Shown here piece by piece: positions 1,644 through 5,933 of a DNA stretch of 7,276 bases. A program made the translations under genes and the position numbers. The stretch spans positions 1-7,276 of IMG/VR virus record IMGVR_UViG_2547132272_000004. One strand, written 5' to 3'. Source of the DNA: a virus (taxonomy: Duplodnaviria; Heunggongvirae; Uroviricota; Caudoviricetes). The notes beneath the pieces were generated by a model that was not told the origin of the DNA, did not search any database, and saw nothing but the letters and a program-made list of their open reading frames with translations. Numbering within the stretch: position 1 is the first letter of the stretch; every line of letters starts with the position of its first letter.

Positions 1644-2051
1644 TTATTGATGTTTGTTACGTTTGCGAGCTTCTAGTAGCTCGGTGAATAGGCGATTAAA
1701 ATTCTCAACGCGGGCACGGAGTTCGCTGATTTGTGCTTGCTGCTCTGATTTTGGAAGTGCGCGATACAATCGCAACATCTCCAACTCATCTTCCGATAAG
1801 TCTAAGGCGCTGTTGAGTGCAACTGGTGGATCTGGTGTTTTATCCTCGTCACCAAACAGTATCCAAGTTGGTGAACATTGCAATACCTCAGCCAGGCGAT
1901 GCAAATTTTGCCCGCGCGGGGCTGTATGGTCGCTTTCCCATAGTGAAATTGATGAGCCAGATACGCCAGCAGCTTTGCTTAAATCGTTTTGACTTAAACC
2001 AACCTGTTTGCGTCTTTCTCTAATTCGTTGGCCTAAAGTTTTCTCGTTCAT
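1644..2051 (-). CDS. dicA: DicA-like prophage repressor (XRE-family HTH, 135 aa, no peptidase domain)
   Basis: Translation MNEKTLGQRIRERRK...LQCSPTWILFGDEDK...RARVENFNRLFTELLEARKRNKHQ matches E. coli Qin DicA as I recall it, including LQCSPTWILFGDEDK and the C-terminal RARV.NFN.LF.ELL.AR motif. An upstream in-frame ATG at 2102 would add 17 aa but lies in the operator region. Confidence 0.85.
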   Translation of the reverse strand: MNEKTLGQRIRERRKQVGLSQNDLSKAAGVSGSSISLWESDHTAPRGQNLHRLAEVLQCSPTWILFGDEDKTPDPPVALNSALDLSEDELEMLRLYRALPKSEQQAQISELRARVENFNRLFTELLEARKRNKHQ

Positions 2052-2128
2052 ATTTAGATATCTTAATAACCCTTGACTTGAGATTCCTTGAGTGATTACC
2101 ATTGAGAAAACTCAACTTTGGAGGGGTG
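2052..2128. promoter_or_regulatory. divergent promoter/operator region between the DicA-like and DicC-like genes
   Basis: 77-bp intergenic region. Perfect 14-bp palindrome TTGAGAAAACTCAA at 2102..2115. Direct CTTGAG repeats at about 2078 and 2087. Plus-strand -35-like TTGACT at 2073..2078. 8-bp palindrome AGATATCT at 2056..2063. Exact -10 elements not confidently placed. Confidence 0.55.
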
Positions 2129-2891: not shown

Positions 2892-3903
2892 AAAGGTGAA
2901 AACCGGCAGTTCATCCAGTAAGTCAGTATTGACCTGGCTTGCTGATATGTGCGGTGCCGATTTGTGTGCATACCCGTCTGTATCAGCCCTGGCAGAAGTA
3001 ACGGAACTGAACAAAAAGACTGTGCAGGACAGCTTACGACACCTGATGGAGATTGGGTTAATTGTTGATACCGGTGAGAGAAAAGGCAGAACAAAGCAAA
3101 TTGTGGTGTACCGACTTATCGGTGTAGAAGAAAGTGTTGCCGAGCCTGAATACACCCAAAAACGGGAGTCTTTAAAGGTGGGTAAAATTGGTGCTGTTAA
3201 TAAAAACAGTACCGAAAACGGTTATGTTTCAGCACAAAACAGACCCAAAAACGGAACTCTTAACTGCATGGAAAATAACCAAAGACACCCAAATTTTCCA
3301 TTAAAGACACCCAAAAACGGATCACGGAACCCAAAGGAACCCAAAGATCTAAACCCCACACATAACGCACGCGAGAGTGCTCCGACCAGTGAGCAGGATG
3401 TTTTGTCGTTACAGGCAACGCCCCCTGTATTCCTGGATGGCCTGAGCGAACCCATCGGAAAATTTCCGATGACCGATAGCTGGCATCCGTCGCGGGATTT
3501 TCGGCGACGGGCTGCGTTGTGGGGGATGGCTTTGCCGGAACCAGAATTTACACCTGCTGAACTTGCCGCCTTCCGGGACTACTGGGCAGCGGAGGGGAAA
3601 GTTTTCACGCAGGTTCAGTGGGAGCAGAAATTCGCCCGTCACGTAAATCACGTCAGGGCGCAGGCTAAACCAGTCAGCAAGGGGGTAAACCATGCAGCAG
3701 CACCAGGTGGCACCGCATCACGGGCAGTTCAGGAAATTCGGGCAGCACGTGAGCGGTGGGAGCGTGAAAACGGATTTATCAACGACGGAAACTGCCTGGA
3801 AGCTGTGGGAACTCATGGGGGAGGTTTATTCGAACCGCTGGACCCAGAAGAACGGGGCCGCACCTTCGAAGCTCTGGATTGCACAGATTGGCGCGATGAC
3901 TGA
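2863..3903 (+). CDS. replication initiator, lambda O-like organisation (N-terminal winged-HTH, iteron-encoding linker, C-terminal domain)
   Basis: ATG 2863 (MSIDALRWAKK...). The N-terminal 90 aa look like a wHTH DNA-binding domain. The central low-complexity stretch is encoded by iteron-like DNA repeats. A P-like gene follows. Confidence 0.7.
   Translation: MSIDALRWAKKVKTGSSSSKSVLTWLADMCGADLCAYPSVSALAEVTELNKKTVQDSLRHLMEIGLIVDTGERKGRTKQIVVYRLIGVEESVAEPEYTQKRESLKVGKIGAVNKNSTENGYVSAQNRPKNGTLNCMENNQRHPNFPLKTPKNGSRNPKEPKDLNPTHNARESAPTSEQDVLSLQATPPVFLDGLSEPIGKFPMTDSWHPSRDFRRRAALWGMALPEPEFTPAELAAFRDYWAAEGKVFTQVQWEQKFARHVNHVRAQAKPVSKGVNHAAAPGGTASRAVQEIRAARERWERENGFINDGNCLEAVGTHGGGLFEPLDPEERGRTFEALDCTDWRDD
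3152..3347. repeat. iteron-like direct repeats (putative prophage origin) inside the initiator gene
   Basis: Perfect 12-mer ACCCAAAAACGG at 3154..3165, 3243..3254 and 3309..3320. Degenerate copies at 3211..3221 (ACCGAAAACGG), 3288..3294, 3329..3337 and 3339..3347. AAAGACACCCAAA occurs at 3281..3293 and 3303..3315. Confidence 0.55.
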
Positions 3904-4357
3904 GCAGCAAATCCGGCAGGTCTGCCGCCAGTGCATGGACCGTTGCAGGGCAGGTGAAACATGGCCTCCGGACCTGGCTGAGTTTGTGGCGCTGATTTCG
4001 GAAAGCGGGGCCAATCCATTTGGTCTGACGGTGGATGCTGTGATGGAGGAGTACCGACGCTGGCGCAATGAGTCCTGGCGATACGACGGAAGCGATAAAT
4101 ATCCGTGGCCTCAGCCTGTGCTGTATCACATTTGCCTCGAGATGCGTTCAAAGGGGATTGAGCGCCAGATGACCGAAGGTGAGTTAAAACGACTTGCAGA
4201 ACGGCAACTGGCGAAATGGGCAAAGCATGTTGGTGACGGCTTCAGCGTTCCGCCCGTACGGCGGCAACTGGCAGCACCAAAACGCCCGTCGGGGCCAACA
4301 CCAATTGAGTTGCTGAAACAGGAGTATGAACGCCGGAAAGCGGCTGGTTTTGTATGA
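3692..4357 (+). CDS. lambda P-like replication protein (helicase loader); start uncertain
   Basis: The C-terminal half (..WPPDLAEFVAL..KYPWPQP..) resembles lambda P as I recall it. ATG 3692 has GGGGG 6 nt upstream but would overlap the O-like gene by 212 bp in another frame. Alternative starts are ATG 3815 and ATG 3896, the latter in an ATGACTGA coupling arrangement. Confidence 0.6.
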   Translation: MQQHQVAPHHGQFRKFGQHVSGGSVKTDLSTTETAWKLWELMGEVYSNRWTQKNGAAPSKLWIAQIGAMTEQQIRQVCRQCMDRCRAGETWPPDLAEFVALISESGANPFGLTVDAVMEEYRRWRNESWRYDGSDKYPWPQPVLYHICLEMRSKGIERQMTEGELKRLAERQLAKWAKHVGDGFSVPPVRRQLAAPKRPSGPTPIELLKQEYERRKAAGFV

Positions 4358-4387
4358 ATTGTGAAGGTGATTTTTTCAGGAGGATTT

Positions 4388-4615
4388 ATGGCGAAACCTT
4401 TTTCTCTCGAACAGCGGGAAGAGCTGAAGGCACGAATTATCGGATTGGTACGCAAAAATGGACGCATGACGATGTCACAGCTGGAGAGAGCGACGGGAGC
4501 AGGCTGGCATTCGGTTCGACGCTGCCTTGTGGATGTGCTGGCTTGTGGCGATTTATACATGTCCGGTAAATACGGTGTTTTTTGCATCAGAGCAGGCGTA
4601 TCGCGTATGGCGTAA
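4388..4615 (+). CDS. hypothetical small protein (75 aa), possible winged-helix DNA-binding fold
   Basis: ATG 4388 with AGGAGG at 4378..4383. The segment MTMSQLERATGAGWHSVRRCLVDVL is HTH-like. Contains the T6 run at 4578..4583. Confidence 0.6.
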   Translation: MAKPFSLEQREELKARIIGLVRKNGRMTMSQLERATGAGWHSVRRCLVDVLACGDLYMSGKYGVFCIRAGVSRMA

Positions 4616-4784
4616 GACACCGGAGAAAAGAACCGACCTGACACTGATTCGAAAGTTACCAGACGGAGAAATACGCCGCTACGACAGGCGTCAGAACATA
4701 ATCTGTAGCGAGTGCCGGAAGAGCGAAGCTATGCAGCGCGTACTGGCGTTTTATCAGGGTAATTTTCAGGAGGTGGTGCGGTGA
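4533..4784 (+). CDS. hypothetical ORF overlapping the preceding gene, possibly its frameshifted continuation
   Basis: No start codon or SD lies downstream of the 4615 stop in this frame. The 3' end is coupled to the next gene (GTGA at 4781..4784). A one-base change in the T6 run at 4578..4583 would fuse it in frame to the 4388 ORF. Confidence 0.35.
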   Translation: MCWLVAIYTCPVNTVFFASEQAYRVWRKTPEKRTDLTLIRKLPDGEIRRYDRRQNIICSECRKSEAMQRVLAFYQGNFQEVVR

Positions 4785-5047
4785 GTGAATCAAAATGCCA
4801 GGTTAAGGGCAACAAGATAGAACCATGTGCAGCACTGGCAAAGTCCCTTGAGCATGATGCTGAATACACGATGCGAAAAGGTCTGCTGATATACAAAGTC
4901 TGGAATGAGAATTTAACTCGCGCCCCTGATTTGGTGATGTTGCGTTCCGGTGAATTTTCTAAATCACCTATTCGAGTCTCATTTTGCCCGTTCTGTGGTG
5001 AAAGTCTGAAAACATGGAAAAAGGAGACAACCAGTGAGCAAGATTGA
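4781..5047 (+). CDS. hypothetical small protein (88 aa) with C-terminal CPFC motif
   Basis: GTG start at 4781 with AGGAGG at 4768..4773 (7-nt spacer). Cysteines at C6, C16 and C69-x2-C72. Confidence 0.6.
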   Translation: MSESKCQVKGNKIEPCAALAKSLEHDAEYTMRKGLLIYKVWNENLTRAPDLVMLRSGEFSKSPIRVSFCPFCGESLKTWKKETTSEQD

Positions 5048-5933
5048 CTATCAGGCACTGCGTGAGGCGGCGGAACGTGCAATTCCAGCAATGGAACGCC
5101 TGTTAATGTTGCCAGCTGATGATGATTTGTTAAGTGAACAGGAACTTAAAGATTACGGTGTGGATATTGATGCGCTCAACGCCTTCAAATTTCTGGCCGG
5201 ACCAGAAACCGTGCTGGCACTACTGGATGAACGGGAAAGAAACCAGCAATACATAAAACGCCGAGACCAGGAAAACGAAATGATGGTTGATGCCATGCAC
5301 GCGGCTATTGCCCTGACAAGTGTTGGAATAGACCTGGACGATTACGACGAATGCGTCTTGCGACTACATGAATGGGGCGCTTTACCTGACTATTGCATTG
5401 CGCTTTATGTGGATTTCGTTCACGGAATTGTATCGAAAAACAAACTTCTGGATTTTGGTTATATCAACGGTGCACCGGTATGGACGTTGCGTGATGAGCT
5501 GGAAGCCGCAGAGAACAACCTTATTGATAGTGAGTGCCATGTTGCTGAACTGGAAGAAGCGCTACGCGATAAGCAGGCGTTACTTGAAGCATCAGAGAAG
5601 CGCATAGCAGAACTGGAAACAAAAGCGAACCAGCAAACCAGAATAAGCGATAAGGGGCTGACAAAGCTGATTGCCGATGCTGACAAAATGCTGGGTATGC
5701 GTTCGCCGGTTATAGACAGCGAGTGGTGGACGCTTTTACGGCAGTTCCTGATTGAACTTCAGGATCGCCGCAGAAACAGCATTTCTGAATCTGGAATCCG
5801 TGCTGAAACCCTGAATGATTTAATCCGACATATTGACAGAAACCTGGATATTGACGCGATGAAATCGCCGTTTGAACTGTCATCTGAAATTGTGGATTAC
5901 GTTAATAGGCAACTGCACAAGGAGAATTCGTAA
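5034..5933 (+). CDS. hypothetical coiled-coil protein (299 aa); N-terminus reminiscent of Ead/Ea22-like prophage proteins
   Basis: GTG start at 5034 with AAGGAGA at 5021..5027. The N-terminal M.IDYQALREAAERA resembles Ead/Ea22-like N-termini from memory only. Central heptad-like acidic region (ELEAAENNLIDSECHVAELEEALRDKQALLEASEKRIAELE). Confidence 0.65.
   Translation: MSKIDYQALREAAERAIPAMERLLMLPADDDLLSEQELKDYGVDIDALNAFKFLAGPETVLALLDERERNQQYIKRRDQENEMMVDAMHAAIALTSVGIDLDDYDECVLRLHEWGALPDYCIALYVDFVHGIVSKNKLLDFGYINGAPVWTLRDELEAAENNLIDSECHVAELEEALRDKQALLEASEKRIAELETKANQQTRISDKGLTKLIADADKMLGMRSPVIDSEWWTLLRQFLIELQDRRRNSISESGIRAETLNDLIRHIDRNLDIDAMKSPFELSSEIVDYVNRQLHKENS

Follow-up and report, generated by a model that had tools for sequence, protein, structure and literature searches.

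The DNA analyzed here (hereafter the window, 7,276 nucleotides) is the whole of a short draft contig, AEJW01000078.1 (NCBI GCA_000208465.2), and its genes are those of the early region of a Qin/Rac-type lambdoid prophage from E. coli. Its gene order starts with a DicA-like repressor (1644-2102, minus strand), a Cro/DicC-like gene, YdaT and a DnaT-domain replication initiator, and continues with the replication gene P, the split gene studied here, a small gene of unknown function, an Ead/Ea22-like gene and a gene for an HNH protein. The longest homopolymer of the window, a G8 run (1636-1643), adjoins the stop of the repressor gene. Features of the region around the split gene are listed in Table 1.

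Table 1. Features of the P to Ren-like region of the window (positions on the window).
Feature	Position	Strand	Evidence
Replication protein P gene	3896..4357	+	Pfam Phage_lambda_P, E 6e-16; gene call; A36 annotation 'replication protein P'
Upstream T6 (4371-4376), then SD CAGGAGGA of the Ren-like gene	4371..4384	+	SD pairing; T6/T5 polymorphism in relatives
ORF1, truncated 75-aa product	4388..4615	+	DUF977 profile positions 1-66
T6 homopolymer, mutation site; intact alleles have T5 (GTT TTT, Val-Phe)	4578..4583	+	Alignments, surveys
C-terminal half of the Ren-like gene, shifted to the +1 frame	4584..4784	+	DUF977 profile positions 64-134
Next gene, 88 aa, PHROG 4030, function unknown, GTG start	4781..5047	+	GTGA overlap with the Ren-like stop

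The split gene consists of two overlapping open reading frames. ORF1 runs from an ATG at 4388 to a TAA at 4613-4615, and ORF2, in the +1 frame, from an ATG at 4533 (or a TTG at 4527) to a TGA at 4782-4784. These coordinates agree with those of an earlier, sequence-only reading of the window, the overlap being 83 bp (4533-4615) where about 85 bp had been given. The T6 run lies inside the overlap, at the frame switch, and deletion of one T from it yields, as that reading had predicted, a single ORF of 396 nt (131 aa) with the junction ...GKYGVF-ASEQAYRVWRK... Because the window contains six T runs of at least six nucleotides, a T6 by itself is nothing unusual, and what goes beyond chance at this locus is the homology of both halves, described below, rather than the run itself.

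Translation signals differ between the two frames. Pairing of the SD sequence amounts to -10.3 kcal/mol at the 4388 start, against -2.2 and -2.4 kcal/mol at the candidate starts of ORF2, which have essentially no SD. At its other end ORF2 is coupled to the next gene, whose GTG overlaps the ORF2 stop (GTGA, 4781-4784) and is preceded by a strong SD (CAGGAGGUG, -11.6 kcal/mol); the same 4-base overlap of the Ren-like stop with the next gene is annotated in relatives. An ORF2 without SD whose 3' end is nevertheless coupled to its neighbour had been noted from the sequence, and is what we find.

Some variation is also seen at the 5' side of the gene. The stop of P overlaps an ATG at 4354 (ATGA), an arrangement that resembles λ P/ren, and the T run that follows at 4371-4376 (within 4354-4390) varies in length among relatives. 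In relatives, a T5 at this upstream run puts the ATG at 4354 in frame, which gives 142-aa forms. In the window and in E. coli A36, both with an upstream T6, this ATG falls out of frame, and the start of the gene is the ATG at 4388, behind its own SD.

We then asked to which family the two frames belong. The repaired ORF matches the Pfam family DUF977 (PF06163) over positions 1-134 of 134, with an E-value of 5e-64 and 214.7 bits for a gathering cut-off of 22.1 bits. ORF1 matches profile positions 1-66 (E 2e-32, 112.4 bits), and ORF2 positions 64-134 (E 2e-26, 93.2 bits). As each matches its own half of the profile, ORF1 and ORF2 are the two halves of one gene. Once repaired, the ORF is a full-length member of the family, like YdaW of prophage Rac or LygF in phage records, and its relatives are annotated either 'DUF977 family protein' or 'LygF'. 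Members of the family are single ORFs of about 129-142 aa, whereas the window copy consists of a 75-aa ORF and a remainder that is probably untranslated.

A relationship with the Ren protein of phage λ was also found. The gene matches PHROG 142, 'Ren-like exclusion protein' (E 6e-45), and alignment with hhalign of a 25-member family profile with λ Ren gave a probability of 96.2% (E 2.2e-9, 89 columns), over a match that takes in the C-terminal motif N-x-x-x-x-E-C-R-x-S-x-x-M-x-R-V-L-A-x-Y. Genomic position agrees: in λ, ren (40280-40570) comes directly after the replication gene P (39582-40283), and the split gene occupies the same place in the window. On these sequence comparisons, the split gene is a long-form homologue of λ ren (DUF977, also annotated YdaW or LygF), and DUF977 proteins in general appear to be long-form homologues of Ren that share the core ECRxSxxMxRVLAxY. 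The intact form of the protein studied here differs from λ Ren (96 aa) in being longer (131 aa) and in containing an inserted linker, to which the window copy adds its frameshift. The escape from Rex exclusion described for λ Ren is only a putative role for DUF977 proteins.

To see what the truncation removes, we used the AlphaFold2 model of a 95%-identical homologue. In it, residues 7-65 form a winged helix-turn-helix modelled with confidence (helices 7-24, 29-36 and 40-53, strands 57-59 and 63-65, pLDDT about 90), and the C-terminal part that follows is less confident. The top Foldseek matches are mostly winged-helix DNA-binding domains (MntR, AraR/GntR, IclR, Z-alpha); their E-values are weak (~4e-3), so that the assignment rests on the topology of the fold and on the consistency of the top hits. 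A sequence search of the PDB with the repaired protein returned chance-level matches only (E 0.1 or worse). As the frameshift comes directly behind the last wing strand (G-V-F), the 75-aa product retains the entire winged-helix domain, residues 1-65 of ORF1 being the N-terminal half of a Ren-like DUF977 protein, and ends with 10 foreign residues (CIRAGVSRMA) read out of frame. Absent from it is the C-terminal module LPDGEIRRYDRRxNIICxECRKSExMQRVLAFY, which is nearly invariant and the most conserved part of the family; the normal function of the gene would be lost in the T6 allele.

The state of the gene in relatives was then examined. The prophage of E. coli A36 is 99.8% identical to that of the window, and between 4110 and 5064 the sole difference is a T5 in place of the T6; A36 carries an annotated, intact DUF977 protein of 131 aa (WP_001585824.1). 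Seven diverse alleles from E. coli were compared, and each of them has T5 and a single ORF. The survey was extended to 95 relatives outside the lineage of the window, taken from complete E. coli genomes, GTDB species representatives and IMG/VR contigs. The protein is in a single frame in 94 of them. At the homologous Gly-Val/Leu-Phe codons, 48 of the 95 have GTT TTT (T5) and 47 have GTA TTT or TTA TTC, without any T run; a T6 at this site was found in none. The uninterrupted ORF that was to be sought in related prophages thus exists, and the earlier suggestion that a 1-bp indel had produced a pseudogene proves right. Since one T must be removed to obtain the ORF of about 130-140 aa expected of a family member, while 94 of the 95 relatives have it uninterrupted, the window holds a disrupted copy of a DUF977 gene.

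The one exception among these relatives, L062 (IMGVR_UViG_3300028991_000027, 1590-1625), carries near codon 37 a 1-bp deletion unrelated to the T6, which turns GGGAGCAGG into GGGACAGG; this frameshift is independent, and does not lie in a homopolymer. Four DUF977 alleles of odd length (P0035, P0037, P0039 and P0086) are broken at yet other places.

Larger collections were searched for the T6 allele itself. It was not found in 5,426 complete E. coli genomes, with queries of 34 nt and 88 nt. The search was repeated with 88 nt since the absence of a match with the 34-nt T6 query might have reflected the low-complexity filter; the 88-nt T6 query gave no record at 99% identity or more, and the full-length matches among those listed all span 87 nt. 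Among 241 million metagenome records, a degenerate T6 pattern retrieved one contig and its IMG/VR twin, both from the lineage of the window. An exact-pattern scan (T5 or T5+N) of the species-representative genomes found nothing, the representative E. coli genome being evidently without this allele, and a protein-guided scan of the same genomes found only eight distant copies. Contigs encoding exactly the repaired protein numbered 36, and those with the truncated form about 5.

These rare truncated forms come from different sources. The exact 75-aa product and the T6 are present on five contigs, namely the window, ENA ERZ27241745, JGI 3300026224, and Logan ERR273781 and SRR5487539. Leaving the window aside, three of the remaining four contigs show no difference from it (100% identity) along the sequence they have in common. 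The fourth, ERR273781, has 58 differences from the window over 3343-4109 and is then identical to it from 4110 to the end of the contig (6073 in the window), so that every copy of the T6 sits in one and the same stretch of sequence, 1.9 kb or more in length. Because five independent assemblies contain it, one of them diverging upstream of 4110 yet identical downstream, the T6 allele is real and has a single origin. As judged from these alignments, it arose once, on a background otherwise base-identical to A36 over 4110-5064, and it now resides in prophages, at least two, that differ upstream of 4110. The sequence-only reading had regarded relatives with the same two ORFs and the T6 as an argument against a disrupted gene. 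Such relatives do exist, but the identical block of about 2 kb common to all of them brings them back to a single event.

The switch of identity near 4110 lies inside the P gene, and the ERR273781 prophage also differs in its YdaT and in its repressor, which has 214 aa and a Peptidase_S24 domain.

The same comparison bears on the possibility that the extra T arose erroneously in sequencing or assembly, from a strain that truly has T5 and an intact gene. Homopolymer length errors are common on some sequencing platforms, the window is a short draft contig, and the intact allele is otherwise identical, all of which would suit a miscall. This option, which had been left beside the pseudogene in the sequence-only reading, is nonetheless very unlikely, given that the same T6 recurs in four other assemblies from different projects, including one prophage that is unlike the window upstream of 4110.

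Could the frame switch be used on purpose? Under programmed recoding, the ribosome would slip by +1 on GUU UUU U, or RNA polymerase would drop one U, and the 75-aa and 131-aa products would both be made by design. The locus resembles prfB-type programmed +1 frameshifting in that the P-site tRNA is able to re-pair after a +1 shift, and indeed tRNA-Phe would do so perfectly (UUU U). A weak SD-like GGUG is also found 2 nt upstream, and beyond the run the +1 frame stays open and keeps its coupling to the next gene. Resemblance ends there, as the stop or hungry codon and the conserved SD stimulator of prfB are missing, and the site is not conserved in homologues: the T6 is limited to one lineage, the other relatives have one frame (except L062, with its unrelated frameshift), and about half of the family (47/95) has no T run at all. 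The 4-nt GGUG codes at the same time for the conserved Gly-Val. In the A site stands UGC, an ordinary Cys codon that is neither a stop nor notably rare, and no downstream structure was detected, the 97 nt folding no better than shuffled sequences (z -0.45). Neither a conserved two-frame site nor a slow or stop A-site codon with its stimulator is thus present. Regarding slippage of RNA polymerase, tracts known to give it efficiently have about 9 or more A/T, and the run here has six Ts that are not conserved in homologues. As for the open downstream frame, it is explained by recency: no other difference from the A36 allele exists within the gene, the mutation being too recent for a second change to have occurred there. 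A low spontaneous +1 read-through at UUU-U is physically possible, and nothing suggests that it has been selected. We consider recoding highly improbable, and the slip site proposed from the sequence is not supported.

Another way of giving the two frames a role would be a functional split gene, in which the winged-helix half and the C-terminal half are expressed separately, the second from ATG 4533, GTG 4575 or some other internal start. Ahead of the conserved module, ORF2 does offer in-frame ATG, TTG and GTG codons. Moreover, truncated YdaW-type proteins can be active if over-expressed: in an over-expression screen, E. coli K-12 ydaW was a hit for blocking RcaT, the toxin of retron-Sen2 (bioRxiv 10.1101/2020.06.22.160242). 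However, the starts in the ORF2 frame are without SD (about -2 kcal/mol), and gene callers called ORF2 in none of the five T6 contigs (0/5). Homologues of ORF2 with a start of their own, which the sequence-only reading had also counted against a disrupted gene, did not appear either: the short or atypical members inspected (120 of 638 matches listed) are contig-end partials or decayed alleles, with no own-start C-terminal halves. Separate expression of the two halves is accordingly a poor candidate, to which we give very little credit.

T5 and T6 alleles both exist on an otherwise identical background, and slippage between them might be thought to switch the gene on and off, as in a phase-variable contingency tract. 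Such a locus undergoes recurrent independent changes of tract length across lineages, and this is not observed here: a single origin of T6 is detectable, and no T6 is present on any other allele background. Typical contingency tracts are longer than six Ts, and the T run is absent from about half of the family. Phase variation is extremely unlikely.

We thus favour, with a probability of about 0.9, an ordinary inactivating mutation, namely a 1-bp insertion that has made of this Ren-like DUF977 gene a recent frameshift pseudogene of single origin. Replication slippage would have added one T to the T5 run (GTT TTT, Val64-Phe65), giving T6. Translation from ATG 4388 then leaves the frame after Phe65, adds 10 foreign residues and stops at 4613-4615, releasing the 75-aa protein. 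ORF2 is the rest of the gene in the +1 frame, lacks a ribosome-binding site and most likely goes untranslated. As for the gene downstream (4781), it can probably still be expressed, since it has kept its own strong SD. Such a 1-bp gain in a short mononucleotide run of an accessory gene is found among the homopolymer-indel pseudogenes of cryptic or resident prophages; we see no essential difference from them, and the window gene belongs there. The T6 frameshift is therefore of a known category and not a new kind of feature. The other decayed DUF977 alleles, L062 and the four of odd length, fit with an accessory gene that a resident prophage can do without.

Inactivation is not the only conceivable outcome of the insertion. 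The 75-aa protein might be functional, for example as a dominant-negative or as an altered DNA-binding regulator, or slippage might restore some full-length protein, in which case re-pairing of tRNA-Phe by +1 on UUU-U, or slippage of RNA polymerase, may provide a small useful amount. If true, either version would explain the persistence of T6 in two prophages differing upstream of 4110. The presence of the allele in at least two prophages shows that it is tolerated, and leaves room for a residual or new function of the winged-helix-only product. We nevertheless regard a living T6 allele as unlikely, and retain the inactivating frameshift.

For annotation, this means that 4388-4784 should be described as one frameshifted Ren-like (DUF977) pseudogene, and neither as two hypothetical proteins nor as a recoding site. 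Labelling it in this way prevents a false positive from entering catalogues of programmed frameshifts.

A side benefit of the analysis concerns the family itself. DUF977 is still listed in Pfam as of unknown function, and in the literature on DUF977, LygF and YdaW we found no functional study, just a transcription-factor survey and the one over-expression screen hit mentioned above. The profile-profile match links these uncharacterised proteins to λ Ren, with the C-terminal motif as their conserved core. Two minor observations may be added. First, ydaW of E. coli K-12 (4753-5313 of the sequence used here, L101) is annotated as an ORF of 186 aa, which exceeds the usual 129-142 aa of family members. 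Second, DUF977 genes of enterobacterial type (48-55% identity) are present on two scaffolds of about 3 kb (L017 and L020) of an actinobacterial metagenome-assembled genome, 'Collinsella sp.' B663_006; these scaffolds are probably mis-binned E. coli prophage DNA.
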